Source of the DNA: a virus
DNA: 64,000 nucleotides
Virus record (IMG/VR): IMGVR_UViG_3300047564_002169
Span: 1-64,000 of that record
Strand: one strand, 5' to 3'
Part shown: positions 4,177 to 32,944 of the stretch, one piece after another
Position numbering within the stretch: the first letter of the stretch is position 1
Layout: the number at the start of each line of letters is the position of its first letter
Position numbers and translations under genes: made by a program
Notes under the pieces: model-generated
Told to the model about the DNA's origin: nothing
The model's input: only the letters and a program-made list of their open reading frames with translations
Database searches by the model: none

Positions 4177-4188
4177 CGAGGAGATTTT

Positions 4189-4644
4189 ATGAAAACTGAA
4201 ATTGGTGACGCATTAAAAGCGACAGGTAATGTTCTTGTCACACAGACAAATTCTGAGGGGCGCGTCATCAAGCAGTTCACCGTCCCTAATCTAGTCGTCG
4301 CTACTGGAAAAAATTATATTGCATCAAAAATGACTGCGACTACCAATTCGCCAGTTTCTATGTCGCATATGGCTATTGGTACTGGAACAGTCGCCGCAGC
4401 ATTCAATGATACAACATTGGGCACAGAAGTCGCTCGTGTTTCTTTATCATCATCTGTGACGGCAGACAATAGTATCACATATTCAGCAGCATTCCCTGCT
4501 GGTACAGGCACTGGTAATATTACAGAAGCTGGTGTGTTTAACGCTTCTTCTGGTGGGATTATGCTGTGCCGCACGTCATTTTCTAGTGTTTCAAAACAAC
4601 TTGGCGATAGTATCACAATTACTTGGGTTGTTACAGTAAGTTAA
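4189..4644 (+). CDS. Virion structural protein (baseplate/fibre-anchor region)
   Basis: GGAG RBS; NLVV.TG, MAIGTG, ITEAGVFN motifs typical of phage tail-associated proteins. Confidence 0.7.
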   Translation: MKTEIGDALKATGNVLVTQTNSEGRVIKQFTVPNLVVATGKNYIASKMTATTNSPVSMSHMAIGTGTVAAAFNDTTLGTEVARVSLSSSVTADNSITYSAAFPAGTGTGNITEAGVFNASSGGIMLCRTSFSSVSKQLGDSITITWVVTVS

Positions 4645-4661
4645 TTTTTTTAGGCTGGCAT

Positions 4662-15483: not shown

Positions 15484-16707
15484 ATGGCTGCTATTACAAC
15501 TAGACAAACCGGCACCACTGGCGTAGATGGAGTGACTAGAAAAGACTCTCCATTAACCAACACTGAAATTGATAATAATTTTATTAATTTAAATAACAAT
15601 AAACTAGAATCATCATGGACAGGTAATACTTCTGTTGTAACGTTAGGTACTGTCACAACTGGTACATGGAATGCTACTACAATATCTGTCGCTAACGGCG
15701 GTACTGGGTTAACATCTACCCCAGCCAACGGCGCTCTTGATATTGGTAATGGAACTGGATTCACTAGAACTACTCTGACTGGAACCGCCAATAGAATTTC
15801 TGTGACCAACGGTTCTGGTTCTATCACTCTTTCTACGCCACAAGACATTGCAACATCATCTAATGTGCAGTTTGGTTCTTTAGGCGTTGGCCAAGCAGCA
15901 TCAGGAACCGCTGGTGACTTGCGAGCAACTACTGCACAGATTACAACTTTAAGTTCAACTACTGCGCAGATTACATCTTTAGGCGTTGGCCAAGCAGCAT
16001 CAGGAACCGCTGGTGACTTGCGAGCAACTACTGCACAGATTACAACTTTAAGTTCAACTACTGCGCAGAGTGGGTCTATAACTTCAACTACTGCGCAGAT
16101 TACATCTTTAGGCGTTGGCACATCAGCATCAGGCACCGCAGGGCAAATACGATTTAGTGACGGTACTATACAATCTACGGCAGCAAGATCAGTACCGTCC
16201 GTACAAGTTTTTACGGCGGGTGGTACATTCACAGTACCAGCTAACGTCACGCGCCTGAAGGTGACCGTTGTAGGTGGTGGTGGTAATGGTGGAGCCAATA
16301 CCGTAGGTAGTTGTAATACCATATACTACGGCGGCGGTGGCGGTGGTGGCGGCAGCTCGCAAAAATGGTTAACTGTTACTCCTGGTGCAACATACACCGT
16401 CACGGTGGGCAGCGCGGGTGGTACATCTTCATTTGGATCTGAATGTTCTGCAACTGGCGGCAGTAATGGTAGTGCCGGCGCACAGGTTAGTGGTGTTGGC
16501 GCGGGAGGTGTCGGTGGTGCTGGTTCCGGTGGTACATTAAATATTGGCGGCAGTTCGGGAACGCCTGGTATTATCGACCGTCCTGTGGGGCGAGGTGGCT
16601 CTTCGATTCTGGGCGGTGGCTCTAATACTGCAGGTCGTTCCTACGGTGGTGGAGGAGGTGGTGGTAGTTATGCTGGTGCCTCTGGCGTTGTCATTGTTGA
16701 ATACTAA
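15484..16707 (+). CDS. Tail fibre-like protein with glycine-rich C-terminal domain
   Basis: PLTNTEIDNNF anchor motif, T/G/S-rich shaft, FTAGGTFTVPANVTRLKVTVVGGGG...GASGVVIVEY glycine-rich tip. Confidence 0.8.
   Translation: MAAITTRQTGTTGVDGVTRKDSPLTNTEIDNNFINLNNNKLESSWTGNTSVVTLGTVTTGTWNATTISVANGGTGLTSTPANGALDIGNGTGFTRTTLTGTANRISVTNGSGSITLSTPQDIATSSNVQFGSLGVGQAASGTAGDLRATTAQITTLSSTTAQITSLGVGQAASGTAGDLRATTAQITTLSSTTAQSGSITSTTAQITSLGVGTSASGTAGQIRFSDGTIQSTAARSVPSVQVFTAGGTFTVPANVTRLKVTVVGGGGNGGANTVGSCNTIYYGGGGGGGGSSQKWLTVTPGATYTVTVGSAGGTSSFGSECSATGGSNGSAGAQVSGVGAGGVGGAGSGGTLNIGGSSGTPGIIDRPVGRGGSSILGGGSNTAGRSYGGGGGGGSYAGASGVVIVEY
15877..16140 (+). repeat. In-frame 99-bp tandem repeat (2 copies plus a partial third)
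   Basis: 15877-15970 is identical to 15976-16069; a degenerate third unit runs to about 16140. Confidence 0.9.
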
Positions 16708-17288: not shown

Positions 17289-17807
17289 ATGGTAACTATT
17301 AAAAATCTTTTTGTAGACGCGGGAGCGGATTACAGTACCATTATTACTGTGAGTGGATATAACGGTCAAGCATTAGACTTGACCGGATATAGCGCAGCTT
17401 CTCAGCTAAGAAAGTCATATGGTTCTAGTATTTCGTACAATTTTACTGCAAGCATATATAACGCAGTTGAAGGAAAAATTAGTCTTGAGTTGACAGCAAA
17501 CCAGGCTTCAGCTATTCCACCAGGAAGATGGCTGTATGATGTAGAAATAACTTCCCCTACTGGTAAAAAAACTAGAGTAATTGAAGGTGTTGTAACATTA
17601 AATCCAGAAATAACTACGCCAGATGGATCGGCTCCAACTAATATTATTAGCTTAGATGATGTTAACGACATTGACGTTGTGACTAATGGTAAACTTGACG
17701 GTTCAGTTTTAGTATATAAAACCGCAACAAATAAGTGGACTTCTACCAAAATTCTAAATCAACAAATCGTGGATGGTGGTGAATACACGGATGGTGGTGA
17801 AATTTAG
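17289..17807 (+). CDS. Virion structural adaptor-like protein
   Basis: LDLTGY...QLRKSY, GRWLYDVEI..RVIEG domain plus C-terminal DGGEY/DGGEI motif. Confidence 0.75.
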   Translation: MVTIKNLFVDAGADYSTIITVSGYNGQALDLTGYSAASQLRKSYGSSISYNFTASIYNAVEGKISLELTANQASAIPPGRWLYDVEITSPTGKKTRVIEGVVTLNPEITTPDGSAPTNIISLDDVNDIDVVTNGKLDGSVLVYKTATNKWTSTKILNQQIVDGGEYTDGGEI

Positions 17808-17932: not shown

Positions 17933-19993
17933 ATGGCATCAGTAATTCGTATTAAACGCAGTTCAACATCCGGCGCACCAACAACACTGGGCGCAGGCGA
18001 ACTAGCGTACTCAGCATTAGCAAATAACGGCAGTAACGGCGGTGACATCCTATACATCGGTATGGGAGCAGAAACAGAAGGTAATGCAGCCAATAAAGTT
18101 GTGATCGGTGGTAAGTATTTCACCGATATGATGGACCACACCAAAGGTGTGTTGACTGCAAGTTCTGCATTGATCACTGATAGTAATTCTAAATTAGATA
18201 ACCTAAAAGTCGATAATTTAGACTTAAACGGTAATACGATTAGCAGCACTGATGCAAATGGCGATGTATTCATTACGCCAAATGGTACTGGTAAAACTGT
18301 TATTACCAATCTATACATTGGTGATACAAGCACTTCTCTTTCTGAGTTCATTTTAGACGCTGTCGGTGGAACAATCACTGCTGGTAATGGTATTACTGTC
18401 ACCAACGACGATGGGGCTAATACCTCTACAGTTGCTATTGATACTTCAGTTGTTGCAACATTATCAGACACACAGACATTATCTAACAAAACGTTTGTAG
18501 CACCAGTTCTCGGTGAAGCAACTGCTACTTCTATTAACAAATTAGCAATTACTGCTCCTGCGACTGGCGCAACATTAACCATCGCTGACGGTAAAACGCT
18601 AACAGTAAGCAACACTCTAACATTCACTGGTACTGATGCATCTTCTGTTGCATTTGGTGCTGGTGGTACAGTTGCTTACACTAGCAACAAGCTAAGCGCA
18701 TTTGCTGCTACATCTTCTGCTGAACTGGCTGGTGTTATTTCTGATGAAACTGGTAGCGGTTCTCTAGTTTTCTCAGATAGCCCAACTCTGGTAACCCCAA
18801 CTCTGGGTGCAGCATTAGCTACTAGCATCACTGCAACTTCTGGTAATTTATCGCTTTCTGCTGCTGCAGGTAATAACAACGTTAATCTAGTTCCAACTGG
18901 TACTGGTACTGTTGACGTTGCTTCTAAGCGCATCACTAGCGTTGCTGAACCAACTCAAGCGACTGATGCAGCAACTAAAGGTTATGTTGATTCTGTTGCG
19001 CAAGGTCTGAATGTTAAAGATGCTGTTCGTGCTGCTACTACCGCTGCGCTGACCGCAACATATTCTAATGGCACTTCTGGTGTTGGTGCTACATTAACTA
19101 ACTCTGGTACTCAAGCAGCACTGGTTATTGATGGCGTTAGCTTGGTCGTCGGTAATCGCGTCTTGGTTAAAAATCAAGCCAGCGCATCTGAAAATGGTAT
19201 CTATGTTGTAACTACTGTTGGTTCTGGATCTGTTGACTGGGTATTAACTCGCGCTGCTGATTCTGACCAATCTCCTGCTGGAGAAATTGCAGGCGGTGAC
19301 TTCACTTTCGTTCAAGAAGGTACTGTTAACTTTGACTCTGGTTTTGTAATTACTACAGACGGCGAAATCACTGTTGGTACTACTGCTATTAACTGGGCTC
19401 AGTTCTCTGGCGCTGGCGCTATTGTTGCTGGTGACGGTCTAACTAAAGATGGTAATACACTAAACGTAGTTGGTACAGCAGACCGCATCAGCGTTAGCGC
19501 TAATGCTGTTGATATTGCATCTACTTACGTCGGTCAAGCTAGCATCACTACTTTGGGTACTATCAGCACTGGTACTTGGCAAGGTACTGTTGTTAGCCCA
19601 ACCTATGGTGGTACTGGTGTAAACAACGGTTCTAAAACTATCACTCTTGGTGGTAATCTCACCACTAGCGGTGCGTTTGACACTACGCTGACTGTAACTG
19701 CCGCTACCTCCGTAACTCTGCCAACCACTGGCACTCTGGCAACTCTTGCTGGTACTGAGTCTCTAAGCAACAAGACAATCACTGCTTCTAGCTTTGATGG
19801 TACTACAGTATCTGCTTCTGGTAACGTCACATTCACTAGCACGACAGATGCTACTGCATTGGGAACTGCGCCAGTTGTTATGTCTGGTGGTCTATCTGTA
19901 GCTAAGTCAATGTACGTCGGTACCAATATCACTGGTGCTGGTGCAGCAACTTCTACTCTAGATGGATTTAACATCGACGGCGGTACATACTAA
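17933..19993 (+). CDS. Tail fibre protein (module A1)
   Basis: AGGAG RBS; N-terminal IRIKRS...GELAYS domain, DAATKGYVD, RVLVKNQ...ENGIYVV fibre motifs, C-terminal DGGTY. Confidence 0.85.
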   Translation: MASVIRIKRSSTSGAPTTLGAGELAYSALANNGSNGGDILYIGMGAETEGNAANKVVIGGKYFTDMMDHTKGVLTASSALITDSNSKLDNLKVDNLDLNGNTISSTDANGDVFITPNGTGKTVITNLYIGDTSTSLSEFILDAVGGTITAGNGITVTNDDGANTSTVAIDTSVVATLSDTQTLSNKTFVAPVLGEATATSINKLAITAPATGATLTIADGKTLTVSNTLTFTGTDASSVAFGAGGTVAYTSNKLSAFAATSSAELAGVISDETGSGSLVFSDSPTLVTPTLGAALATSITATSGNLSLSAAAGNNNVNLVPTGTGTVDVASKRITSVAEPTQATDAATKGYVDSVAQGLNVKDAVRAATTAALTATYSNGTSGVGATLTNSGTQAALVIDGVSLVVGNRVLVKNQASASENGIYVVTTVGSGSVDWVLTRAADSDQSPAGEIAGGDFTFVQEGTVNFDSGFVITTDGEITVGTTAINWAQFSGAGAIVAGDGLTKDGNTLNVVGTADRISVSANAVDIASTYVGQASITTLGTISTGTWQGTVVSPTYGGTGVNNGSKTITLGGNLTTSGAFDTTLTVTAATSVTLPTTGTLATLAGTESLSNKTITASSFDGTTVSASGNVTFTSTTDATALGTAPVVMSGGLSVAKSMYVGTNITGAGAATSTLDGFNIDGGTY

Positions 19994-20104
19994 ATAATTG
20001 GAGTAAAGGGGCAGTTTTTACTGCCCCAATTACTTTAATTGGGGTAAAGGGCAGTTTTACTGCCCTAACTACCTTTTTAGTAATCACTATGACAAATAAA
20101 GTTA
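17945..20104 (+). repeat. Long direct repeat copy 1 (gene A plus downstream spacer); copy 2 at 22528-24694
   Basis: Collinear near-identity, including a 62-bp exact match between 18107-18168 and 22690-22751. Confidence 0.95.
19990..20080 (+). promoter_or_regulatory. CTAAATA late motif followed by tandem GGGCAG-T4/5-ACTGCCC hairpins
   Basis: Hairpins at about 20008-20027 and 20049-20066; duplicated at 24570-24670. Confidence 0.65.
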
Positions 20105-20156
20105 CTACAACACAAATTGGTTTTGTGATGTTATCGCAACCGTCATACAGACTTAA
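20089..20156 (+). pseudogene. Deletion scar: start of gene B joined to the 3' end of a gene E homologue
   Basis: atgacaaataaagtt equals the first 15 nt of the 24679 gene; 20106-20156 translates YNTNWFCDVIATVIQT*, compared with YNATDLFWDAVATVTQA* of 29130-29528. Confidence 0.8.
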
Positions 20157-20167
20157 AAGGAATGTAA

Positions 20168-20422
20168 ATGAAACTTGATTTTGAAATCGACACATCGCAC
20201 GGTAAATACCGCGACGCATTACATTTACCAGACGACCACTCTTTCACGGAAGAGCAAATCACTCAGATGCAAACAGAACGAGTCAACGCATGGATTTACG
20301 CTATAGAAAATCCACCTGTTCCTCAACCTGAAATTGTTGAAATTGCTGGAGTACGTTACGAAAAGGTTGAGTTTGAAGGGCAAACTCTACTCAAACCCAT
20401 ACTCACTGTAGTCGGAGCGTAA
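20168..20422 (+). CDS. Small hypothetical protein F1 (paralogue of 29549-29785)
   Basis: MKLDFEIDTSHGKYRDALHLPDDH versus MKIDFQFQTKYGTFRDALSLPDDH; AGGA RBS. Confidence 0.85.
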   Translation: MKLDFEIDTSHGKYRDALHLPDDHSFTEEQITQMQTERVNAWIYAIENPPVPQPEIVEIAGVRYEKVEFEGQTLLKPILTVVGA

Positions 20423-20424
20423 TT

Positions 20425-23400
20425 ATGGCTAATCGATATTGGGTAGGTGGCTCCGCACAGTGGAATGCTACTGCCGGGACAAAATGGGCATTCACGTCTA
20501 ACGGATCAGGCGGTGCGCCAGTTCCTACTATTGATGACGATGTGTTTTTTGATGTTAATTCATCAAATGCGAGCGTATCCACCTCGTCCAGCGTCTTGCC
20601 TGCAAAATCGATCAACTGCACTGGATTTACCGGCACAATAACGTTAAGCGGTACAATTAATGTTGCTGGCAATGTTACACTCAGCTCTGGTATGACCTGG
20701 GTATCGGCAGCGAACTCGCTTGTTACGTTTACTGGCTCCGGCACATTAACGACTGCTGGCAAATCCTTTAGTGCTATAGAAGTTAATGGCTCCGGTATTA
20801 CGGTGACGCTTGGCGATGCGTTGAGCATGTCGGGCAGTTATCCGAATGGTGCGCTTACGGTCACGCGGGGTACATTTAATACCGCAAACTATAATGTTAC
20901 GGGCAGCGCGATTGTTTCGTCAAATTCAAATACGAGAACAATCAATTTAGGGTCTTCAACGGTGACGCTCTCTCATAGCACTCCGGTCGACCTGGCTACT
21001 ACCACCAACTTGACATTTAATGCAGGGACTTCGCAAATTACTGCAAGCTCATCAAATCCTACGTTCAATGGCGGCGGATTGACATTTTATAACGTTTCTT
21101 TTACCTACGCGAATACAGGCGCAGCCAATATAAACGGCGCGAACACGTTCAACAATCTGTCGATTACTGCAAATGGTACAGGGTTGAACGCACTTTCTAT
21201 CAGCGCAAATCAAACGGTCAACGGCACCCTCACTTGCGCGGGGGCGTCTGCCACACAACGAGGATTTGTTCGATCAAGCGTACTCGGCACATCGCGCACG
21301 ATTACTGTCGCGACCCTATCTGCAAATGACTCTGATTTCCGCGACATCACGATTGCTGGCAGCGCAGCAGGTGGTTCTCCGACTCGTGCAGGTGATTGCG
21401 GCAATAACTCCGGCATCACGTTTCCAGCTGCAAAAACGGTTTATCGAGTAGGAACCAACACGACATGGTCAGGTTCTAGCTCGTGGGCACTTTCTTCTGG
21501 AGCATCTGGAAGCAATAATAATTTTCCTCTCCCGCAAGACACGGCAGTTATTAACAACGATACCACACTGTCTGGAACGCTGTCTTTTAACTCGACATAC
21601 AACATCGGAACGGTGGATTGTTCTAACAGAACCACCGCAATCACGTTAAACTATAATAACGCACAGTCAACTTTTTATGGTTCGCACGCATTCGGTTCAG
21701 GCGTAACTTCTTTCGGCACTGTAACCCAACGGTTTTCAGGTCGCGGTACGCAGACTTTTACTTCTGCTGGTAAGACAATCACGTTCCCAATTTTGGTAGA
21801 GAAACCTGTCGGCGCGTTTGAACTCGGTGATGCGTTTTCTTCGAGTAGCGGGCTTGAACTTACTGCCGGTACTCTTAATGCTAAGAATTACAACGTCAGT
21901 TGCGCCTACTTCGCCCTAGTCACCTCGGCAGTCATCGTAAGCCCACGAACTTTAACAATGGGTTCAGGTTTGTGGACGTTAACTGGGGCAAATGGAACTG
22001 GTTATGCTGGAGGCGCAGAAGTCTGGAGTTTCGGGTCTAACGCCAGTTTTACATTGAACAAAGACACTGCGAATATTCTGCTCTCCAATACCTCAACATC
22101 GTCACGCACATTTAACGGTCCAGACGGCGCTGTTTATAACAAGCTGACTATTGGCGGGGCAACCGGAGCTTCTACAACAACGATCGGCGCCAGCAACAAA
22201 TCATATACGTTTAGTGAATTGGCTTCAACAAAGACAGTCACGCACACTATAAGTTTTGCTGCGAACCAGACAATCACCAAGTGGACTGTTACAGGCACCT
22301 CTGGTAATATTGTTACCGTCAATAGTACCTCCGCAGGAGTCCGTCGCACGATCACGCTAATTAATGCAACCAGCTCAGCAAACGATGTCAACTACTTAAG
22401 CGTAAAAGACATCGGAGTCACTGATGCGAATAAGTTCTACGTGGGTGCAAATTCTACTAACGGCGGCAACAATCTTAACGTGATTTTTATGACACCGCCA
22501 GCCTATGTTAACCCAACGACCCCAACAATTCGCATTAAACGCAGTTCGACTTCTGGTGACCCTACAACACTTGCTGCGGGCGAACTAGCGTACTCAGCAT
22601 TAGAAAATAATGGTAGCAATGGCGGCGACATCCTATACATCGGTATGGGTACGGAAACGTCAGGTAATGCAGCGAACCATTTTGTAATTGGTGGTAAGTA
22701 TTTCACCGATATGATGGACCACACCAAAGGTGTGTTGACTGCAAGTTCTGCTCTTATCGCGGACTCTAGTTCTAAGTTAGATAATCTAAAAGTTGATAAC
22801 TTAGACTTAAATGGTAATACGGTTAGCAGCACTGATGCGAATGGTGATTTATTCATTACGCCAAATGGTACTGGCAAGACAGTTATTACTAATCCATATA
22901 TTGGCAATAACTCTACTTCTCTTTCTGAGTTCATTTTAGACACTGTTGGTGGTGTTGTTACTGCTGGCACTGGCATCACAGTTACAAATAGTGATGTAAA
23001 TAATACTTCTACCATAGCTATTAGTTCTGCGGTCGTGACGTTAACGGGCACGCAGACATTATCTAACAAAACTCTAGTAGCACCAGTTCTCGGCGCGGCA
23101 ACTGCTACTTCTATTAACAAATTAACAATTACTGCTCCAGCAACTGGTTCAACTCTAACCATCGCTGATGGTAAAACGCTAACCGCGAACAATACATTAA
23201 CATTCACTGGTACTGATACATCTTCTGTCGCGTTTGGTGCTGGCGGTACTGTCGCATATACTAGCAACAAGCTAAGCGCATTCGCCGCTACTACTTCTTC
23301 TGAACTAGCTGGTATTATCACCGATGAAACTGGTAGTGGTTCTCTAGTTTTTGCAAATAGCCCAACCCTGGTATCACCAACACTCGGTGCCGCTTTAGCT

Positions 23401-24573
23401 ACTAGCATTACTGCAACTTCTGGTAGTTTAACAATCGCTGCCGAAACAGGTGATAATAGCGTTAATCTAGTGCCAACCGGAACTGGTACAGTCGACGTTG
23501 CATCGAAGCGAATCACCAATGTAGCTGAACCAACTCAAGCGACTGATGTCGCAACGAAGTCTTATGTTGATGATGTTAAGACTGGACTGATCATCAAAGA
23601 TGCGGTTCGCGCTGCTACTACTGCAGCATTGACTGCCGCGTATTCTAATGGTACTTCTGGTGTTGGCGCTACATTAACTAACTCTGGTACTCAAGCTGCG
23701 CTTGTGGTTGATGGGGTGTCGTTAGTTGCTAACGATCGCGTCTTGGTTAAAAATCAAGCTGATGCGTCTGAAAATGGTATTTACGTTGTAACGAACGCTG
23801 GTTCGGTTTCTACTGACTGGGTATTAACACGTGCTGCTGATTTTGATCAATCTCCTGCCGGAGAGATTGAAGGTGGCGATTTTACTTTCGTTCAAGAAGG
23901 TACTGCTAACGCTGATTCTGGTTTTGTAGTAACCACGAACGGTGCAATCACTGTTGGTACCACTGGTATTAACTGGGCGCAGTTCTCTGGTGCTGGTTCT
24001 ATCGCTGCTGGTGATGGTTTAACCAAAGATGGTAATACACTAAACGTAGTTGGTACAGCAGACCGCATCACAACAACTTCCGACGCTGTTGATATCGCGT
24101 CTACTTACGTCGGTCAATCTAGCATCACTACTCTGGGTACTATCAGTACTGGTACTTGGCAAGCAGATATTATTAATCCAGCTTACGGTGGTACTGGTGT
24201 AAACAACGGGTCTAGCGCGTTCACTCTTGGTGGTAATCTTACTACTAGCGGCGCGTTTAACACTACTTTAACTGTAACAGCTAATACTTCGTTAACGCTA
24301 CCAGTTACTGGTACTATCGCAACTCTTGATGGCACTGAATCATTAAGTAACAAAACAATCACTGCTTCTAGTTTTGATGGTACTACATTATCTGCCTCTG
24401 GTAATATTACGTTTACCAACACGACAGATGCTACTGCGTTGGGAACTGCACCAGTTGTTATGTCTGGTGGTCTGTCTGTAGCTAAAGCCATGTTCGTAGG
24501 CACTAATATTACTGGTGCTGGAGCGGCAACTTCTACTCTAGATGGATTTGTTACTGACGGCGGTACATACTAA
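20425..24573 (+). CDS. Chimeric adhesin/tail fibre protein (G1 domain fused to a second copy of module A)
   Basis: About residues 1-688 are paralogous to 29788-31824; residues from about 702 to the end are paralogous to 17933-19993; linker MTPPAYVNPTTPT. Confidence 0.85.
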   Translation: MANRYWVGGSAQWNATAGTKWAFTSNGSGGAPVPTIDDDVFFDVNSSNASVSTSSSVLPAKSINCTGFTGTITLSGTINVAGNVTLSSGMTWVSAANSLVTFTGSGTLTTAGKSFSAIEVNGSGITVTLGDALSMSGSYPNGALTVTRGTFNTANYNVTGSAIVSSNSNTRTINLGSSTVTLSHSTPVDLATTTNLTFNAGTSQITASSSNPTFNGGGLTFYNVSFTYANTGAANINGANTFNNLSITANGTGLNALSISANQTVNGTLTCAGASATQRGFVRSSVLGTSRTITVATLSANDSDFRDITIAGSAAGGSPTRAGDCGNNSGITFPAAKTVYRVGTNTTWSGSSSWALSSGASGSNNNFPLPQDTAVINNDTTLSGTLSFNSTYNIGTVDCSNRTTAITLNYNNAQSTFYGSHAFGSGVTSFGTVTQRFSGRGTQTFTSAGKTITFPILVEKPVGAFELGDAFSSSSGLELTAGTLNAKNYNVSCAYFALVTSAVIVSPRTLTMGSGLWTLTGANGTGYAGGAEVWSFGSNASFTLNKDTANILLSNTSTSSRTFNGPDGAVYNKLTIGGATGASTTTIGASNKSYTFSELASTKTVTHTISFAANQTITKWTVTGTSGNIVTVNSTSAGVRRTITLINATSSANDVNYLSVKDIGVTDANKFYVGANSTNGGNNLNVIFMTPPAYVNPTTPTIRIKRSSTSGDPTTLAAGELAYSALENNGSNGGDILYIGMGTETSGNAANHFVIGGKYFTDMMDHTKGVLTASSALIADSSSKLDNLKVDNLDLNGNTVSSTDANGDLFITPNGTGKTVITNPYIGNNSTSLSEFILDTVGGVVTAGTGITVTNSDVNNTSTIAISSAVVTLTGTQTLSNKTLVAPVLGAATATSINKLTITAPATGSTLTIADGKTLTANNTLTFTGTDTSSVAFGAGGTVAYTSNKLSAFAATTSSELAGIITDETGSGSLVFANSPTLVSPTLGAALATSITATSGSLTIAAETGDNSVNLVPTGTGTVDVASKRITNVAEPTQATDVATKSYVDDVKTGLIIKDAVRAATTAALTAAYSNGTSGVGATLTNSGTQAALVVDGVSLVANDRVLVKNQADASENGIYVVTNAGSVSTDWVLTRAADFDQSPAGEIEGGDFTFVQEGTANADSGFVVTTNGAITVGTTGINWAQFSGAGSIAAGDGLTKDGNTLNVVGTADRITTTSDAVDIASTYVGQSSITTLGTISTGTWQADIINPAYGGTGVNNGSSAFTLGGNLTTSGAFNTTLTVTANTSLTLPVTGTIATLDGTESLSNKTITASSFDGTTLSASGNITFTNTTDATALGTAPVVMSGGLSVAKAMFVGTNITGAGAATSTLDGFVTDGGTY

Positions 24574-24694
24574 ATAATTGGAGTAAAGGGGCAGTTTTTA
24601 CTGCCCTTTAACTACCTCTACTAAATAATTGAGTAAAGGGCAGTTTTTACTGCCTCAACTACCTTTTTAGGAATTATTATGACAAATAAAGTTT
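22528..24694 (+). repeat. Long direct repeat copy 2 (module A2 plus spacer)
   Basis: Collinear with 17945-20104. Confidence 0.95.
24570..24670 (+). promoter_or_regulatory. Two CTAAATA late motifs, each followed by a GGGCAG..CTGCC hairpin
   Basis: CTAAATA at 24570 and 24621; the unit ctaaataatt(g)gagtaaaggg(g)cagtttttactgcc occurs twice. Confidence 0.65.
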
Positions 24695-26574
24695 TACTGA
24701 AAAAATCTTCAGTTGCAGCAAAAGCTCCCCTAACCACGGACTTAGAATATGGTGAATTAGCAATTAACTACGCTGATGAGAAACTGTATTTTAAAAATTC
24801 GTCAAATGTTATCAAATCTTTCAGCGCGACAGGCGGTTCAGGTACAGTCACATCAATTACTGCCGGCACTGGTTTAACTGGTGGCACTATCACTACTAGC
24901 GGCACTATCGATATTGATACCGCTGTAGTCGCTACACTCACTGGTACTCAGACACTTACTAATAAAACACTAACTGACAGTACCACATATTTTCAAGACG
25001 AGGCTGATAACACTAAGAAACTTCAGTTTCAGCTTTCTGGTATTACTACTGCTACAACAAGAACACTCACAGCCCCAGACGCGTCTGGGACTATTGCTCT
25101 GACCAGCAACAAATTAAGCGCGTTTGCCGCGACCACTTCTGCTGAATTAGCTGGTGTTATTTCTGATGAGACAGGTTCTGGTGCTCTGGTTTTCGGCACT
25201 AGCCCAGCAATCACTACTTCTCTCACTACACCAAGTACTTCATTTGATCTTGTTAATACAACTGCTACTACAGTAAATTTTGCCAATGCTGCAACTACTC
25301 TTTCTATCGGCGCTTCTACTGGCACAACTACTATTAATAACGATATAGTTGTTGCAGGTAACCTAACTGTTAATGGCACAACTACTACATTAAACACCAC
25401 CAATATTACTGTTGATGATATTACTCTAGAACTTGGGGTAGTGACAACGCCAACAGACGTTACTGCTGCGGGTGGCGGTATTATTCTTAAGGGTGCTACG
25501 GATAAAACCATTACGTGGGGTTCAGCGAATGGCTGGACGTCAACGGAGTCTTTTAATCTTGCTTCTGGTAAAACATATAAAATTAATGGAAATGATGTTT
25601 TATCAGGATCAACTCTTGGCTCTGGCGTAACAGCTTCTTCATTAACTAGCGTTGGAACTATTACTTCTGGTACTTGGTCTGGTTCTTTTGGTGCAGTTTC
25701 TGGAGCGAACTTAACATCACTAACTGCTGGTAATCTATCAGGAACAATTCCTTCAGCAGTTTTGGGTAACTCAACCACTTACGTTGGTACTACTGCAGTT
25801 GCATTAAATCGCGCCTCAGCGAACTTAGCGTTAACTGGCATTTCTTCTATTACTCTTCCAGGTTCTTCATCTGGAACTGTTCAGATTGTACCAACTGCAG
25901 AAGTTGGTACTGGTACAGTTTTAACTATTCCAGCGACTACTGGCACGATTGTTACTACTGGCGACAGCGGTACTGTCACATCAACAATGATCGCTGATGG
26001 CACAATCGTAAATGCTGATATTAATGCTTCTGCTGCGATTGCTGTTTCTAAGTTGGCAGCTTCTACTATTTCTGGTGTTACATTAGGTAATAACCTTAAT
26101 GCCCTTACAATCGGTACTGGTCTTTCTGGAACTTCATATAATGGTTCTGGGGCAGTAACCATTGCTATTGATTCTACTGTCGCTACATTAACAGGATCTC
26201 AGACGTTAACGAACAAATCAATAGCTGCGTTCGATCAAAAAACTGGTTCTACTACCGTTGCTAATAATGCAGTCATTCAAGCGTCTGTTTCAACAACTGC
26301 TCAAACTGCGGTAGATACTTTCGCTACTGCAACTTATCGTTCAGCTAAGTATATAATTCAAGTAACTCAGGGAACGAACTATCAAGTTTCTGAGATTATG
26401 GTTATTCATAATGGAACGACTACAACTATTTCTGAATATGCCATGATGAACACCAATGGTTCTCTAGCAACATTCGCAACAGATATTTCTTCTGGAAACG
26501 TAAGACTTCTAGTTACAATGGGTTCTGCAACAGCTGCAACTATAAATATAGCAAGAACGACCATTGTCGTATAA
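24679..26574 (+). CDS. Tail fibre protein B
   Basis: N-terminal LKKSS...GELAINYADEKLYFK resembles T4 long-fibre gp34/gp37 N-termini; C-terminal DTFATATYRSAKYIIQV domain. Confidence 0.85.
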   Translation: MTNKVLLKKSSVAAKAPLTTDLEYGELAINYADEKLYFKNSSNVIKSFSATGGSGTVTSITAGTGLTGGTITTSGTIDIDTAVVATLTGTQTLTNKTLTDSTTYFQDEADNTKKLQFQLSGITTATTRTLTAPDASGTIALTSNKLSAFAATTSAELAGVISDETGSGALVFGTSPAITTSLTTPSTSFDLVNTTATTVNFANAATTLSIGASTGTTTINNDIVVAGNLTVNGTTTTLNTTNITVDDITLELGVVTTPTDVTAAGGGIILKGATDKTITWGSANGWTSTESFNLASGKTYKINGNDVLSGSTLGSGVTASSLTSVGTITSGTWSGSFGAVSGANLTSLTAGNLSGTIPSAVLGNSTTYVGTTAVALNRASANLALTGISSITLPGSSSGTVQIVPTAEVGTGTVLTIPATTGTIVTTGDSGTVTSTMIADGTIVNADINASAAIAVSKLAASTISGVTLGNNLNALTIGTGLSGTSYNGSGAVTIAIDSTVATLTGSQTLTNKSIAAFDQKTGSTTVANNAVIQASVSTTAQTAVDTFATATYRSAKYIIQVTQGTNYQVSEIMVIHNGTTTTISEYAMMNTNGSLATFATDISSGNVRLLVTMGSATAATINIARTTIVV

Positions 26575-26600
26575 TTTTAACTCGTGGATAGGGAAACGAG

Positions 26601-28799
26601 ATGGCAAACGAATTCGTAGTAAAAAATGGTTTAATTGCACCAAATGTCCAGATTTCTGGTTCAACATCAGGAACAACTACATTAAATTCAGCAGCTACCG
26701 CATCTGGCACATTAACGCTTCCGGCAGCAACTGACACTCTAGTTGGTAAAGCAACCACTGATACTTTAACTAATAAAAGCATCAGCGGTTCTACTAACAC
26801 TTTAACAAATATTGCAAACTCTGCACTAACTAATAGTTCTATTACAATTAATGGATCTGCAATTAGTTTAGGTGGAAGTGCAACTATTACCGCAGCCAAT
26901 CCAAATGCTCTGACAATTGGCACAGGTTTATCTGGCACTTCGTACAACGGTTCATCCGCTGTAACGATTGCCATTGATTCTACAGTAGCTACGCTCACTG
27001 GAACTCAGACACTAACTAACAAAACACTAGTAGACGTAAACACAGAATTTATTGGTTCTGCTAATAACACTAAAAAATTGGGTTTATCCGCGTCTTTAAT
27101 TCCTGCTAGTACAAAGTACACATATTCATTCCCAGTCGTAGCTGCAGACACCAACAACACCGCGAACGCGGCGACGGGTGCTGGTGCCGTTCTTGTCGCA
27201 GATCTTTCAGTACAGACGCTATATCACAAATCACTATCAGACGCCACCACGTTCTTTATTGACGACGTTGATGGTAGTAAGAAAATGCAGTTCCAGTTAT
27301 CTGGCATTGCTGCTGGTACTACCAGAACTATTACTGTACCAAACGCGGACATTAATTTTACCACTGGTTTAGGCGTTGCCAACGGGGGAACCGGCACAAC
27401 GACACTCACAGCAAATAACGTCATCCTTGGTAACGGCACCAGCGCGGTTCAATTTGTTGCACCTGGCGCGAATGGAAACGTATTGACCAGTAATGGCACG
27501 ACGTGGACTTCTGCTGCGCCCACAGGTGGCTCGCAGACATACACTATTGACGGCAAAACTAGCGCGTACACGGTTTTGTCTACAGATCTTGGCAAGATCA
27601 TCAATTGCACAGCTAATACCTTTTCGGTCTCGCTGACGGCGGCGGCTACGCTTGGTTCTGGTTTTAACTGTTGGATTTGGAACACTGGTACAGGGGCTAT
27701 CACTATTGACCCGAGCGCTAGTGAGACTATTGACGGTGCAACTACGCTGATTTTGCGTCAAAACGAAGGTACGCAGGTTGTTTGTGATGGTACAAATTGG
27801 CTGACAGGTGGTAAAAAAACCATGCGAGGGTATACGGAGAACATACCGTCTACCTACGGCAAACCGATTGCATCCGGGGCTGGGGCGATTGCGCTGGGGA
27901 ATAGAAATGGCGACACTGTTTATCTGTCACAGGCTACGGGCACTCGTGCATTCGCCGTAAACGGTTATGCCACCGCCAATTATTCATCAGCAATCGGACA
28001 AACTTCTGCGGGTTTAGGCGCGGAGGCTAATACGGGGGCGGGTGCAATGGCGCTTGGGGGATCTTACGCCTCCGGCGCAGATTCGTTTGCTGCTGCAGTA
28101 GCAACCAATACAAGCAGCTATGGCGCGACCGGGGCGAATAGTATTGCATTTGGATACCAAGCAAAAGGCAGTGGTAGTCAGTCTTCTGCTTTAGGTGGAA
28201 ATACGGCTCTTGCATCTGGTAGTAATTCTGTAGTTGTAGGCGGTTTTACAAACACTGCAAGCGGGACTGGGTCTGTTGCTTTTGGTGGTTATTACAACAC
28301 CGCCTCTGCAAGTTACTCGTATGCATCAGGTTATTACGCCAGCGCCGCTCAATACGGTAAACAAGTGTTTGCCTCGGGTCGATTTGCAGCTGACGGCGAC
28401 GCCCAAGCAGGCAAGATGGTGTTGCGCATTTCCACCACTAACGCAACGCCCGCCGTCATGACCTCGGACGCGGGGGCTGCAAGCACCACTAACCAAGTCA
28501 TCCTCCCCAACGACTCAACTTACGCTTTCCGCATTCTTGTCGTTGCGCGACGCACTGACGCAGATAACGAGAGCGCGGGTTACGAGTTCAGCGGTGTGGT
28601 GGACCGAAACGCCAATGCTGCGTCCACAGCTATTGTCGGCACAGTCGCCAAAACTGTCCTTGCGGAAGACACCTCCGCATGGGATGTCAACGTCACTGCA
28701 GACACCACCAACGGCGGGTTGAAAGTAGAAGTTACTGGCGAAGCGGCTAAGACCATTCGTTGGGTCGCTACTGTCTGGACTTCGGAAGTTACTGGTTAA
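26601..28799 (+). CDS. Tail fibre protein C with YadA-head-like repeats
   Basis: MANEFVVKNGL start; QTLTNK shaft motifs; A.G..S.A.G 14-15 aa repeats (ATGANSIAFG, ASGSNSVVVGG). Confidence 0.8.
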   Translation: MANEFVVKNGLIAPNVQISGSTSGTTTLNSAATASGTLTLPAATDTLVGKATTDTLTNKSISGSTNTLTNIANSALTNSSITINGSAISLGGSATITAANPNALTIGTGLSGTSYNGSSAVTIAIDSTVATLTGTQTLTNKTLVDVNTEFIGSANNTKKLGLSASLIPASTKYTYSFPVVAADTNNTANAATGAGAVLVADLSVQTLYHKSLSDATTFFIDDVDGSKKMQFQLSGIAAGTTRTITVPNADINFTTGLGVANGGTGTTTLTANNVILGNGTSAVQFVAPGANGNVLTSNGTTWTSAAPTGGSQTYTIDGKTSAYTVLSTDLGKIINCTANTFSVSLTAAATLGSGFNCWIWNTGTGAITIDPSASETIDGATTLILRQNEGTQVVCDGTNWLTGGKKTMRGYTENIPSTYGKPIASGAGAIALGNRNGDTVYLSQATGTRAFAVNGYATANYSSAIGQTSAGLGAEANTGAGAMALGGSYASGADSFAAAVATNTSSYGATGANSIAFGYQAKGSGSQSSALGGNTALASGSNSVVVGGFTNTASGTGSVAFGGYYNTASASYSYASGYYASAAQYGKQVFASGRFAADGDAQAGKMVLRISTTNATPAVMTSDAGAASTTNQVILPNDSTYAFRILVVARRTDADNESAGYEFSGVVDRNANAASTAIVGTVAKTVLAEDTSAWDVNVTADTTNGGLKVEVTGEAAKTIRWVATVWTSEVTG

Positions 28800-28828
28800 T
28801 TACATAAATTATAATTAAAGGAAACATC

Positions 28829-29128
28829 ATGGCAATTCAAATCGACATCCAGACATCTCAATTCGGTGTCCCTTTTCAGGGGGCATATTTCCGTATCGTC
28901 GCGGCTGTGCTTACACGCCAACGTCAAGAAGACCCGCGCCACACTGTCATGATTGATGTGGCGGGTTATGCCACGCAGCCGCAGAACGAAGATACTAGAG
29001 AAGTAGACTTTAGACGGTATCACGCCTCTGCTTCTGAAGTATTCGCGCAGGATGGCGAAAACTTCTTGGCGCAATGTTATACATGGGTAATGTCACAACC
29101 TGACATGACTGGGTCTGAAGGAGTATAA
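28829..29128 (+). CDS. Hypothetical protein D (fibre-associated)
   Basis: AAGGA RBS; tightly packed in the fibre operon. Confidence 0.75.
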   Translation: MAIQIDIQTSQFGVPFQGAYFRIVAAVLTRQRQEDPRHTVMIDVAGYATQPQNEDTREVDFRRYHASASEVFAQDGENFLAQCYTWVMSQPDMTGSEGV

Positions 29129-29129
29129 C

Positions 29130-29528
29130 GTGGCAATTCAAATCAATCATCAGACTAATGAGTTGACTGCCACCACGAATGGTATTAAAGCGAACATAGT
29201 GCCACGCGTCGTTGCTGCGGCAGCAACGACGGGTAACCTCACGATCGCGGGAGACACTACCGATGTATACAAAGCCGAAGGGTTGACTGGCGCGATCACG
29301 TTCCTGCAGCCAAGCGGAACTCCAGTAGACGGTCAAAGACTCATGATTCGCATCGAAGACAATGGGACAGCGCGGGCAATTACTTGGACAACTTCTTCTG
29401 GTGCATTCCGTGAAGTCGGCATCTCGCTACCGACCACCACTGTGCTGGGAAAGGTCACGTATGTCGGTTGCATCTACAACGCCACGGATTTATTTTGGGA
29501 CGCTGTGGCGACCGTGACGCAAGCATAA
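29130..29528 (+). CDS. Fibre tip/connector-like protein E
   Basis: GTG start; PSGTPVDGQRLMIRI..NGTARAITW...LPTTTV..K..YVGCIYN...WD beta-rich domain. Confidence 0.75.
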   Translation: MAIQINHQTNELTATTNGIKANIVPRVVAAAATTGNLTIAGDTTDVYKAEGLTGAITFLQPSGTPVDGQRLMIRIEDNGTARAITWTTSSGAFREVGISLPTTTVLGKVTYVGCIYNATDLFWDAVATVTQA

Positions 29529-29548
29529 AAATTAATACAGGATTAATT

Positions 29549-29785
29549 ATGAAAATAGATTTTCAATTTCAAACAAAATATGGGACGTTCCGCGATGCGC
29601 TATCTCTTCCTGATGACCACGACATGACGTCTGAGAAAATTATCGAGATGCAGATCAATCGTTTGAATAATTGGATGTATTTGATTGAAAACCCACCAGA
29701 GCCAGAAATTGTCGATCTTGGTGGTGTGAAGTATGAAAAAGTTGTTTTGGATGGACAAACATTGCTTAAGCCTATTGAGAGTTAA
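29549..29785 (+). CDS. Small hypothetical protein F2
   Basis: ATG at 29549 after AGGA; paralogue of 20168-20422. Confidence 0.85.
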   Translation: MKIDFQFQTKYGTFRDALSLPDDHDMTSEKIIEMQINRLNNWMYLIENPPEPEIVDLGGVKYEKVVLDGQTLLKPIES

Positions 29786-29787
29786 AC

Positions 29788-31824
29788 ATGGCCAATCGCT
29801 ATTGGGTCGGTGGAACTGCTTCTTGGGACGGCACTGCTGGTACAAAATGGGCAGCTACATCTAATGGTTCTGGTGGAGAGACAGTTCCTACAAGTGCCGA
29901 CGATGTATTTTTCGATGCATCTTCTACCGGTACCGTCACGATCGCCGCTGGCAACACAGGCGCGAAGTCGATCAACTGCACCGGATTTACCGGAACCATC
30001 ACAGGAACAGCCGCGATCACCGTCGCAGGCAGCATCACGCTTGTTTCGGGGATGACGTACACGCATACCGACACGGTCACGATAAGCGGTACAGGCACAT
30101 TAACGACTGCAGGTAAGACGTTTAGTGGATTAACCATTAACGGTTCAGGAATCACAGTAACTCTGGGTGATGCATTAAATGTGTCTACTGCCAGATCTGT
30201 CACCATCACTCAAGGCACTTTTGACACAGCAAACTACAACGTTACTGCCCTTCAACTTGTTTCGTCGAATTCAAATACAAGAACCATCAATCTAGGATCT
30301 TCAACAGTAACATTAGCTGCCAGCGGAGCGTCAATTAACTTCGTAACAGGAACAAATTTAACATTTAACGCTGGCACTTCTCAAGTTAACCTACCCGCCA
30401 CCAGTGCAGGTATTTTCGGAACTCAGACATATTACAACGTTTCTTTTACTGGGTCGGGAGCAGGAACTCGCACTATTAACGCCGCGAACACATTCAACAA
30501 CCTCACTCTGACTGCTAGCTCGACTGGGTTAAGTGAACTTTCTGTTAGCGCAAATCAAACCATCAACGGTACTTTTACCTGCGCCGGGACAACCGTGACA
30601 CAACGAGGGTTTGTTCGCTCCAACACTATTGGGACATCGCGTACTATTACTGCAGCAACTATTTCGGCAAATGATTGCGACTTCCGTGACATCACAATCG
30701 CTGGTGGAGCGGCAGGCAGTTCTCCGACTCGCGCAGGTGACTGCGGAGGAAACTCTGGTATAACATTTCCATCTGCAAAAACGGTTTATCGCGTAGGAAC
30801 CAACACAAACTGGACGACCGCTGCGTCGTGGGCACCCAGTTCTGGCGGTACAGGAGCTAGCGAGAATTTCCCGCTCCCGCAGGATACTGCGGTCATCAAC
30901 AACGACACGACGCTGACCGGCACTTTGTCGTTAAATGGCACGTACAACGTCGGAACACTTGATGCGTCCGCTAGGACTACCGGGATCACGCTCAGTTTTG
31001 CAGGAAATACATATTACGGCAACTTCACGCTTGCATCCGGGGTAACAGTCTCTGGTACGGGCATCCAGACGTTTTCCGGTCGCGGTACGCAGACTTTTAC
31101 TTCTGCTGGTAAAACAATTACGTTCCCAATCACGGTAGACAAACCTGCCGGGACGTTTGAATTGGGCGACGCATTTGCGTCGAGCAACACCGTCACGCAC
31201 ACTCGCGGCACGCTTGATGCAAAAAACTACGCTGTAACATGTACGCAGTTCAATTCAAGCAACAGCAACACTCGAACCGTTACTATGGGTTCCGGGTTGT
31301 GGACGTTGAGCGGAACCGGAAACGTCTGGACGTTAACTACTGCAACTGGGCTTACGTTCAATAAGGGATCAGCCGACGTATTACTGTCAAACACCAGCAC
31401 AACTAGTCGCGGATTCTCTGGCGGCGGGCAATCTTACAATAAGTTGACGATCGGCGGACCCTCTGGGTCGTCCCTAACAGCAATAAATCAGGTAAACACA
31501 TTTACAGAATTAGCCTCTACAAAAACCGTTGCGCACACAATTCAGTTTAGCGCAAACCAAACGATCACAACGTGGACCGCCACTGGCACTTCTGGAAACG
31601 TTGTCACTGTCAACAGCAGCTCCGCAGGCACCCGCCGCACGATCACACTCACCAATAGCACCGCAGGAACGGTAGACTACATGTCTGTCACTGACATCGG
31701 CATTACTAACGCCAACCGCTTTTACGTCGGCACGAATTCGACAAATGGTGGCAACAACCTGAACGTTATTTTTGCTGCTGGTCCTAGTCCCTCGACCGGA
31801 AACATGTTCTTCATGTTCCAATAA
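29788..31824 (+). CDS. Putative adhesin / receptor-binding protein G2 (T/S/G/N-rich beta-solenoid-like)
   Basis: MANRYWVGG start, two internal ~330-aa repeats (PTSADDVFFD / PLPQDTAVIN), C-terminal GNMFFMFQ. Confidence 0.75.
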   Translation: MANRYWVGGTASWDGTAGTKWAATSNGSGGETVPTSADDVFFDASSTGTVTIAAGNTGAKSINCTGFTGTITGTAAITVAGSITLVSGMTYTHTDTVTISGTGTLTTAGKTFSGLTINGSGITVTLGDALNVSTARSVTITQGTFDTANYNVTALQLVSSNSNTRTINLGSSTVTLAASGASINFVTGTNLTFNAGTSQVNLPATSAGIFGTQTYYNVSFTGSGAGTRTINAANTFNNLTLTASSTGLSELSVSANQTINGTFTCAGTTVTQRGFVRSNTIGTSRTITAATISANDCDFRDITIAGGAAGSSPTRAGDCGGNSGITFPSAKTVYRVGTNTNWTTAASWAPSSGGTGASENFPLPQDTAVINNDTTLTGTLSLNGTYNVGTLDASARTTGITLSFAGNTYYGNFTLASGVTVSGTGIQTFSGRGTQTFTSAGKTITFPITVDKPAGTFELGDAFASSNTVTHTRGTLDAKNYAVTCTQFNSSNSNTRTVTMGSGLWTLSGTGNVWTLTTATGLTFNKGSADVLLSNTSTTSRGFSGGGQSYNKLTIGGPSGSSLTAINQVNTFTELASTKTVAHTIQFSANQTITTWTATGTSGNVVTVNSSSAGTRRTITLTNSTAGTVDYMSVTDIGITNANRFYVGTNSTNGGNNLNVIFAAGPSPSTGNMFFMFQ

Positions 31825-31984: not shown

Positions 31985-32944
31985 ATGCCTGTTGCATCTA
32001 GAGAACAATTAAAACGTTATGCACTGCGCGCTCTAGGTGCACCAGTGCTTGAAATAAATGTGGACGAAGATCAGTTAGAAGATCGTATTGATGAGGCATT
32101 AGATTATTGGAACCTTTACCACTACGAAGGCGTTGAACAAATTTACATGAAGCAACCGATTCGCGCTTCTGAGATCATTCTCAATACCCCTGTAGCTGGT
32201 AATTATCAAATTGCAGAGAAAATAACAGGAGCGGTTTCTGGCGCTGTTGCAGAAGTGGTTCGTGAATCAACTCGAACTTCTTCAGGAACATTGTTGCTAA
32301 TTAAAAATATCGTTGGAACATTTCAAGTTGGAGAAACAATCACTGGTTCTAATTCTGGACAAACAGCGACTACTGTTTCTATTACGCTACGAGAATACGA
32401 CAAAAGATATATCGAGATTCCAGATTATGTTTATGGTGTGACTAAAATTTTAGGTATGGGACAAGCAAGTTCTTCGAAGAACATTTTCGATTTGCAATAT
32501 CAGCTGCGACTAAATGACTTATACGACTTAACTTCGACCAGCCTTATCTACTATAAAACAGTCATGAGTCACTTAGCTCTATTAGATTTAGAGTTAAACG
32601 GACATCAATTATTCAGATTTAATCGTCTTTCTAATCGTTTGTACTTAGACGCAAATTGGGCGACTGACTTTATTCTTGGCGACCATATTATTATCCAAGG
32701 ATATCGTGCTATGGATCCAGCTACTTACAGTCGCGTGTTTAATGAACCCTGGTTAAAACATTACGTCACCGCATTATTCAAAAAACAATGGGCGACTAAT
32801 ATAAAGAAATTCTCTGGAATTCAACTTCCTGGTGGAGTCACTCTCGACGGAGATAAACTATACGATGAAGCCGTCACTGAAATTAAAGAACTTGAAGATG
32901 AACTGCAGAATAAAGCATCTCCATTAGACTTTTTCCTTGGATAA
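31985..32944 (+). CDS. 13: Neck protein gp13
   Basis: LRALGAPVLEINVDEDQLEDRI, KKQW..N..KF.GIQLPGGVTLDG. Confidence 0.93.
   Translation: MPVASREQLKRYALRALGAPVLEINVDEDQLEDRIDEALDYWNLYHYEGVEQIYMKQPIRASEIILNTPVAGNYQIAEKITGAVSGAVAEVVRESTRTSSGTLLLIKNIVGTFQVGETITGSNSGQTATTVSITLREYDKRYIEIPDYVYGVTKILGMGQASSSKNIFDLQYQLRLNDLYDLTSTSLIYYKTVMSHLALLDLELNGHQLFRFNRLSNRLYLDANWATDFILGDHIIIQGYRAMDPATYSRVFNEPWLKHYVTALFKKQWATNIKKFSGIQLPGGVTLDGDKLYDEAVTEIKELEDELQNKASPLDFFLG

Follow-up and report, generated by a model that had tools for sequence, protein, structure and literature searches.

How did one phage come to carry two copies of a fibre gene that its relatives carry once, and what became of the genes between them? 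The question is raised by positions 17933–31824 of a 64,000-nt stretch of DNA (the window throughout), which comprises the first 64 kb of IMG/VR virus record IMGVR_UViG_3300047564_002169, a linear metagenome contig of 98,586 bp with a CheckV completeness estimate of 61%. All genes of the window lie on the plus strand. By its gene content, the source phage is classed as a T4-like, Kyanoviridae-related myovirus, and the region studied as its distal fibre locus. The initial annotation had described a block of seven genes (A to G) preceded by a partial second copy. Our analysis indicates that the locus probably arose by an old, partial tandem duplication of the fibre block and a deletion of B to E from the first copy, with the duplication joint kept as an in-frame fusion of G1 to A2. 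Tail-fibre loci are where phage host range evolves, and this one appears to be an unusually readable fossil record of cassette import, duplication by unequal crossover and internal deletion. The features of the block are as follows.

17933–19993, plus strand: A1, complete A-type fibre gene, 686 amino acids, with a free N-terminus (MASVIRIKRS) and a strong Shine-Dalgarno site; PHROG tail-fibre and structural matches
20008–20065, plus strand: pair of G+C-rich hairpins after A1 (20008–20027 and 20049–20065), duplicated along with A and also found after A2
20089–20156, plus strand: putative deletion scar, codons 1–5 of B joined out of frame to the last 16–17 codons and stop of an E-type gene (E-family C-terminal consensus from 34 relatives)
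20168–20422, plus strand: F1, 84 amino acids, paralogous to F2; most of the fetched G loci have a homologue immediately 5' of G
20425–22488, plus strand: G1 part of the fusion frame, predicted double beta-helix unit (fold inferred from the G2 model), ending ..NLNVIF without the GNMFxMF-stop tail
22489–22527, plus strand: 13-codon Pro/Thr-rich linker (MTPPAYVNPTTPT), apparent remnant of the tail region of G1 itself, carrying the novel joint; its in-frame ATG at 22489 has no ribosome site
22528–24573, plus strand: A2 part of the fusion frame, A-type fibre from residue 5 (IRIKRS..), without MASx and without start signals of its own
24588–24655, plus strand: second pair of the same hairpins, after A2, a repeat of the pair after A1
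24679–26574, plus strand: B, second fibre gene, 631 amino acids, native composition, with an N-terminus conserved after A in relatives
26601–28799, plus strand: C, fibre gene, 732 amino acids, sharing repeat modules with A and B; raised G+C at third codon positions (GC3) and TATAAATA at 26541
28829–29128, plus strand: D, small open reading frame (ORF) of 99 amino acids; no homologue found; first 8 codons resemble those of E
29130–29528, plus strand: E, 132 amino acids, which in other phages forms the conserved C-terminus of larger fibre proteins (PHROG 3030)
29549–29785, plus strand: F2, 78 amino acids, paralogue of F1 (BLASTP)
29788–31824, plus strand: G2, complete G unit of 678 amino acids, modelled by AlphaFold as two consecutive right-handed beta-helix domains with a disordered hydrophobic tail (GNMFFMFQ, then stop)

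Two copies of the fibre block

Self-comparison by BLASTN aligned 17944–20103 with 22527–24693 at 82.2% identity over 2174 nt, a segment running from A through the hairpin spacer into B, of which it takes in the first 15 nt; the initial annotation had described A1 and A2 as collinear over about 2 kb, which agrees. In the F-G part, 20425–21845 matched 29788–31184 at 67% and 22191–22488 matched 31478–31773 at 70%. At the protein level, A1 is 84.5% identical over 682 amino acids to residues 702–1382 of the ORF at 20425–24573, F1 and F2 are 60% identical over 78 amino acids, and G1 and G2 64% over 695, which bears out their earlier description as clear but more diverged paralogues. The exact tracts of 62 bp (18107/22690) and 35 bp (21739/31078) that had first drawn attention to the region were both found as given, together with tracts of 51 bp (19976/24556) and 46 bp (19445/24025). 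At 82% identity the expected number of runs of at least 62 bp is 0.002, and neither the paralogy and the tracts nor the scar and the fusion frame described below are products of chance. The copies are adjacent, in direct orientation and in the same gene order, with offsets of 4580–4583 for A and 9339–9363 for F-G, as in a tandem duplication.

We compared this arrangement with more than 100 related loci from IMG/VR and metagenomes, a synteny comparison that the initial annotation had proposed. The relatives' fibre locus sits between the baseplate-wedge genes and a gp13-like neck gene, and its order is p172, directly followed by A, then B, whose N-terminus is conserved, further fibre genes in varying number and the gp13-like gene. 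The window follows the same Kyanoviridae-type synteny between baseplate-wedge and neck genes, with A1 directly after p172, which is taken from this conserved order to mark the native left edge of the locus. Two flanking features define it.

17289–17807, plus strand: p172, conserved small fibre-associated gene, always directly 5' of A in relatives (PHROG 1084/3304; synteny including Melnitz)
31985–32944, plus strand: gp13-like head-tail adaptor, native right edge of the locus by synteny

A second A gene was found in none of the more than 100 related loci, each of which has one, and E, F and G were likewise in none of them. The closest backbones (L013, L052 and L159), with large terminases 86–88% identical to that of the window, are without the cassette, and Methylophilales phage Melnitz has a minimal locus of a p172-like gene, A, B, one small gene and the neck genes.

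The block is also mixed in the composition of its genes. The GC3 of A1 (0.28), A2 (0.29) and B (0.24) lies within the range of the backbone (0.23–0.32), and higher values were obtained for C (0.42), D (0.46), E (0.54), F2 (0.38) and G2 (0.49), as well as for F1 (0.35) and G1 (0.45). On these values A and B are judged to be native and C-G and F1-G1 to be imported.

The G1::A2 joint and the scar after A1

G1 and A2 form a single open frame of 1382 codons (20425–24573). All of the 35 other A homologues compared (35/35) start with MA[AS]x or MSTx before a conserved (R/K)IK motif; A2 enters at I5. A free MASxIRIKRS N-terminus is present in A1, and A2 is the sole exception, internal to the fusion; an A-type N-terminal motif internal to an ORF was seen in 0 of 89 cases in the fetched loci. 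On the other side of the joint, complete single-unit G homologues all end in ..NV[IY]F[TS]A.P(P)....NMFxMF and a stop. G1 keeps NLNVIF and a Pro-rich 13-mer that resembles the G tail region, and the hydrophobic end and the stop are missing. The 5' end of the block is intact in the first copy (MASV of A1) and the 3' end in the last (the GNMFFMFQ tail of G2), and the joint at 22489–22527 lacks both. This pattern looks like the classic footprint of a tandem duplication by one unequal crossover; since the two outer ends are intact and the joint has neither, the most plausible reading of the G1::A2 fusion is that the crossover made it directly, as the joint of the duplication, and that it is no later accident.

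No Shine-Dalgarno site accompanies the ATG at 22489, although each of the neighbouring genes has one, so A2 is most likely made only as part of the 1382-residue protein. A slippage origin of the frame was considered and rejected. The ATG lies in ATTTTTATGA, and with one T fewer G1 would end at a TGA overlapping an A2 start; but the 13 codons that follow NLNVIF correspond to the Pro-rich tail region found in other G proteins, all other A homologues begin with MASx-type residues, and no ribosome site precedes the ATG.

In-frame joining of G units is found in other phages. Among 70 fetched G-family ORFs, 30 are longer than 1200 amino acids and 18 have tail-to-head G::G joints, in which the first unit lacks its tail and a P/T/A linker leads into the next unit from residue 4 (..TAKPADST on one side, RYWVGG.. 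on the other). Outside this phage no G::A joint came to light: of the 301-residue joint region, no more than 53% was covered by any of the 119 best non-self database matches, and this coverage was confined to the A side. The exact joint patterns gave 0 matches in IMG/VR, and a 400-residue query spanning the joint recovered from metagenome contigs only A N-termini, at no more than 74% identity, and nothing across the joint; both searches may leave out near-identical records.

The second novel junction follows A1. Positions 20089–20103 are codons 1–5 of B, and the next 50 nt, in another frame, encode ..YYNTNWFCDVIATVIQT and a stop, which matches the conserved E-family C-terminus (..CIYN..N.RWDV[VI]AV.TQA, then stop), with the stop at the same place. 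F1 follows this E end just as F2 follows E. After A1, the repeat of the hairpin spacer and of 15 nt from the start of B is 81% identical, and the ribosome site of B at the scar has decayed from AGGA to AGTA. The scar of B start and E end that had been noticed after A1 is thereby confirmed, at 20089–20156. No string shared at the scar is longer than 16 nt, and the E remnant is distinct from E (about 55% in protein).

These two junctions also bear on whether the arrangement is real. A chimeric co-assembly of one strain with A1-scar-F1-G1 and another with A2-B-...-G2 would give the same order of genes, the record is a linear metagenome contig with an estimated completeness of 61%, and no second assembly containing the joints was obtained. 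Assembly programs, however, connect sequences through k-mers that they share, and no such k-mer exists at either joint. The 38 nt at 22489–22527 are found nowhere else in the window; the similarity to G2 ends at 22488, and that to A1 begins at 22527. At the scar, nothing longer than the 16-nt string is shared, and the E remnant is not the sequence of E. The paralogue pairs are all at most 82% identical, too different to collapse or to bridge, and the G1::A2 joint is in frame and follows the fusion grammar of other phages. The exact 1382-residue protein is on record from 3 contigs of the Joint Genome Institute (JGI), which counts for little, as these may be copies of one assembly. Taken together, we consider an assembly artefact highly improbable.

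Divergence of the copies and the order of events

The number of synonymous differences per site (pS) between the copies is 0.42 for A, uniform along the gene, 0.72 for G and 0.90 for F. Saturation values, obtained by redrawing synonymous codons according to each gene's own usage, are 0.70, 0.82 and 0.87, respectively, which places A at about 61% of saturation and F-G near saturation. The divergence is not equal across the unit, as it would be after one event with no later exchange. Because the copies of A are less diverged at silent sites than those of F-G, A would have been homogenised or exchanged later. The scar is also where "young" and "old" sequence meet, with the start of B and the spacer (81%) on one side and the more diverged E remnant on the other.

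The ratio of non-synonymous to synonymous divergence (dN/dS), a comparison also suggested by the initial annotation, is 0.16 for the A pair and about 0.10 for the G pair, which points to purifying selection on both. Neither half of the fusion shows decay. The differences between A1 and A2 fall at third codon positions in 62% of cases, with a symmetric spectrum and a single 3-nt indel; identity in 180-nt windows ranges from 72 to 89% with no near-identical block, and no recent exchange between A1 and A2 is visible. One A homologue carries the UniRef name 'Major tropism determinant', and a diversity-generating retroelement of the Mtd type was therefore considered; it was rejected, since the A1/A2 mismatches are symmetric over the four bases (93, 107, 76 and 116), mostly third-position transitions, and have no adenine bias.

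In phylogenetic trees, A1 and A2 are sisters with a support of 100 (37 homologues) and tip lengths of 0.081 and 0.097, and G1 and G2 are sisters with supports of 97 and 98 in two samplings of the family (72 and 54 homologues), where the tip of G1 (0.32–0.34) is longer than that of G2 (0.19–0.20). The F tree has too few columns and did not resolve F1 and F2 as sisters.

These data allow a second history to be weighed, in which F1-G1 came from a second external E-F-G cassette and A with its spacer was duplicated separately and later. It would account for the different silent divergence of A and F-G, and it agrees with a cassette that is widespread and mobile, with the high GC3 kept by both G copies, with the outside relatives to which G2 is closer by identity than G1 is, and with an F tree that has no F1 and F2 sisterhood. 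The well-supported sister relation of G1 and G2 speaks against it, as does the scar, in which the start of B directly follows A1 and the end of E directly precedes F1 in the same order as in copy 2. It also needs more events and leaves unexplained why exactly the segment from A to the start of B was duplicated. Two separate acquisitions are therefore unlikely in our judgement.

The history that we favour, with a tandem duplication at its centre, would have run as follows. The native p172-A-B-(variable)-gp13 locus would first have acquired, from outside, a host-recognition cassette (C/D-E-F-G). One unequal, non-homologous crossover would then have turned the A-to-G block into a tandem pair, the partners being either sister genomes or two closely related phages in a co-infection, and the breaks falling within the final codons of G and at codon 4/5 of A; the sequences at the joints are by now so diverged that any microhomology there would be obscured. 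A single joint of this kind explains the normal N-terminus of A1, the normal C-terminal tail of G2 and the in-frame G1::A2 fusion. Next, copy 1 would have lost B to E, after which the scar of B start and E end remained and the locus was, on balance, 4.58 kb longer; headful packaging would lead one to expect such a loss. Finally, a later conversion or population-level exchange, within the remaining homology, would have reset A and its spacer, as suggested by their two- to four-fold lower divergence at silent sites compared with F-G. Such a conversion, if it ended by illegitimate joining in E, could have made the deletion in the same step. A crossover of co-infecting phages with divergent cassette alleles would give the same map and cannot be told apart from one between sister genomes. 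The initial proposal, that the block was duplicated or captured from a relative by unequal recombination and that the first copy then lost B-E, is corroborated by the scar and the sister relations; the single age of the copies that it implied is not.

Several observations weigh against this history. One event should give one age, and the different ages of A and F-G make it necessary to assume an extra step of conversion or exchange. G2 is more similar to some outside proteins (70–72%) than to G1 (64%), which the tree attributes to the faster branch of G1, that is, to its longer tip. G1 and G2 have kept a high GC3 despite a silent divergence near saturation, which is odd if the divergence arose inside an AT-rich genome. 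The signal of purifying selection is pairwise and, had the copies come from two phages, could be older than the fusion. In addition, the contig is a metagenome assembly for which neither joint was recovered independently.

Since the reset of A, the locus would have been static, with both A and both G copies under purifying selection. Its products would most likely be one free A fibre, one chimeric G1::A2 fibre of 1382 amino acids and a separate F2-G2 set, which would widen a fixed receptor-binding repertoire and would not act as a switch.

The initial annotation had gone further and proposed a switch, namely that recombination between A1 and A2 could reversibly excise F1-G1, as a recombinase-free, accordion-type host-range mechanism. 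In its active form, frequent homologous recombination between A1 and A2 would excise and restore F1-G1 in the population. The direct repeats extend over 2.17 kb, with identical tracts of 62, 51 and 46 bp, T4-type phages recombine avidly, even at microhomologies of 6–10 bp (bioRxiv 10.1101/2022.04.14.488369), and a collapsed product would keep an intact hybrid A in its native position. The repeats are not near-identical, however: they are 82% identical, evenly diverged, with a longest identical tract of 62 bp and no converted blocks, and the equal rates at which the A copies are conserved point to long coexistence without concerted evolution. Furthermore, a crossover would remove the scar, F1 and G1 entirely; F2-G2 are only 60–64% identical to them, and the sole F1-G1 copy, once deleted, could not be re-expanded without another genome, so that the cycle could not repeat. 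No copy-number series was seen in the more than 100 related loci, which belong to more distant relatives and all have one A. Neither the reversible excision nor the accordion mechanism is supported by these observations, and we hold an active accordion to be very unlikely.

In a bolder form of the chimera, an A-type fibre would carry G1 covalently at its N-terminus and still dock to the baseplate through its anchor domain, giving two recognition modules per arm; the 2.1-kb A1/A2 repeats would in addition maintain a standing polymorphism, with and without F1-G1, that tunes host range. We regard this combination as quite unlikely. Overall, the locus is an ordinary case of fibre-locus evolution in phages and calls for no new mechanism; the G1::A2 chimera and the E-F-G module are the parts that merit a follow-up.

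The imported cassette, the native genes and comparable systems

The E-F-G cassette, defined by a fibre ending in the E domain, a small F and a G starting with MANRYWVGG, is complete in copy 2 and represented in copy 1 by the last 16–17 codons of E, F1 and G1. We found 396 relatives of G in IMG/VR (tblastn) and more than 1,700 in a metagenome protein collection, and their flanks have nothing in common with the backbone of this phage. In one locus (L076) the module closes the tail gene cluster, just 5' of the endolysin. E-F-G is on this evidence considered an imported, mobile cassette, widespread in unrelated phages, and a very common phage module without prior characterisation that is here brought to notice. 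An NCBI protein (P0122) identical to F1 at 83 of 84 residues, on a contig of 6,672 bp, is an independent record of a very close relative. A Pfam search returned no family for A, B, D, E, F or G, and F and G have no PHROG family either.

In other phages the E domain is the C-terminus of fibre proteins of 151–712 amino acids, always just before F, and from this position it could be a docking or chaperone-binding domain. The E-like C-terminal domain spans about 110 amino acids (..YVGCIYN..WDVVAV.TQA, then stop), and E-like ORFs were observed in L076, L079, L117 and others. D has no homologue in any fetched locus, and its first 8 codons are common with those of E (MAIQI[D/N].QT); it may be a fragment of an older, longer E-type gene.

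Members of the G family (loci L073–L152) share an invariant MANRYWVGG..W start, the double beta-helix and a hydrophobic GNMFxMF tail ending at the stop. Only two cultured phages were found to carry it: Limnohabitans phage DC31, in which the region has no annotation, and Methylophilaceae phage P19250A, which has the N-terminal part. The AlphaFold (AF2) model of G2 has a predicted local distance difference test (pLDDT) score of 91.5. Foldseek returned nothing for this model in the PDB at E<=0.001. VIA-align matched it to Vag8, phage depolymerases, phi29 gp12 and CBA120 TSP2 (Z 13–15.5, root-mean-square deviation about 4 A, 270–289 residues), matches that include tailspikes and autotransporter passengers, and neighbours in the ESM Atlas agree. 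The model thus identifies G as a probable tailspike-like or adhesin-like beta-helix protein. The two divergent adhesins of the initial annotation are present as two copies, but the label is not borne out for A, a conserved baseplate-proximal fibre gene for which "adhesin" needs care.

Chained G units in one frame reach about 1,980 amino acids, and at their joints the hydrophobic tail is missing and the following unit begins without its first three residues; such chains were observed in L097, L098, L101, L104, L109, L111, L113, L114, L116, L120, L123, L124, L129, L133, L150 and others. In-frame chaining may be a general way of building multi-module spikes. The multi-unit proteins (such as those of L097, L113 and L123) resemble the fusion in the window in their tail-less G unit, their Pro/Thr/Ala linker and a next unit that starts 3–4 residues into its N-terminal motif. 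They differ in that the partner is another G, whereas in the window it is an A-type fibre, which elsewhere always has a free N-terminus.

Among the native genes, the parts best conserved across relatives are the C-terminus of A (19900–19993/24480–24573; up to 83–90% identity) and the N-terminus of B (24679–24830; 75–85%), and the middles vary. A and B may be successive segments of one fibre, a reading that fits the conserved end of A and start of B; A1, without a B of its own, would then have to share the single B.

The closest cultured carriers of gene A are Melnitz (MZ577097) and Pelagibacter phage Mosig (MT647606), which have in common with the window a small fibre gene, an A-type fibre, a B-type fibre, neck proteins and a sheath stabiliser. 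A is 41% identical over 528 amino acids to the 'tail fiber' of Melnitz. Unlike the window, Melnitz has one A and no E-F-G cassette, and its locus is about 4.4 kb long, against about 14 kb.

The poxvirus genomic accordion, in which K3L is amplified and collapses, needs near-identical copies, and its collapse leaves the gene present. The window resembles it in having tandem repeats able in principle to expand and contract by homologous recombination, and differs in that its repeats are 82% identical and that collapse would remove the unique F1-G1. Other phages carry several tailspikes or mosaic fibre genes, such as CBA120 with TSP1-4 and T-even phages with gp37/gp38. Here too paralogous receptor-binding proteins stand side by side, and the modelled fold of G matches beta-helix tailspikes (Z 12–15), but there is no sequence relationship and no branching adaptor domains were identified in the window.

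In T4, tandem amplifications arise readily at short microhomologies and are followed by compensating deletions (Srikant, Guegler and Laub 2022, bioRxiv 10.1101/2022.04.14.488369). By analogy, the proposed origin of the duplicated structure fits this biology: both cases concern a T4-type phage, a tandem duplication by non-allelic recombination, a novel joint of end to start and a later deletion towards the headful limit. The T4 copies, in contrast, are identical, recent, variable in number and selected for the dosage of an anti-defence gene, whereas the window has two old copies, 18–35% diverged, of structural fibre genes, with the deletion inside the duplicate.

The surroundings of the locus agree with the assignment of the phage. 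Matches to PHROG identified baseplate-wedge proteins at 941–8126 and a structural protein of 2325 amino acids at 8169–15146. The studied block is followed by the gp13-like adaptor (31985), a gp14-like head-closure protein, a sheath stabiliser, the large terminase and the tail sheath. The DNA of the major capsid gene (44445–45743) is about 76% identical to that of its counterparts in T4-like cyanophages, and a megablast search of 17–32 kb against GenBank phages gave no match.

An exact T4-type late-promoter box (TATAAATA) occurs at 17253, 26541, 43375 and 62329, upstream of p172, C and two other late genes. None precedes F1, B or the A2 part, and the number of boxes is not above chance; a scan for sigma-70 promoters and terminators gave counts no higher than in shuffled sequence. 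Finally, upstream of p172, a fibre-like gene (15484–16707; PHROG 863/6202) contains three tandem 99-nt repeats at 15856–16182, 93% and 61% identical to the reference copy, with nested units of 30 nt.

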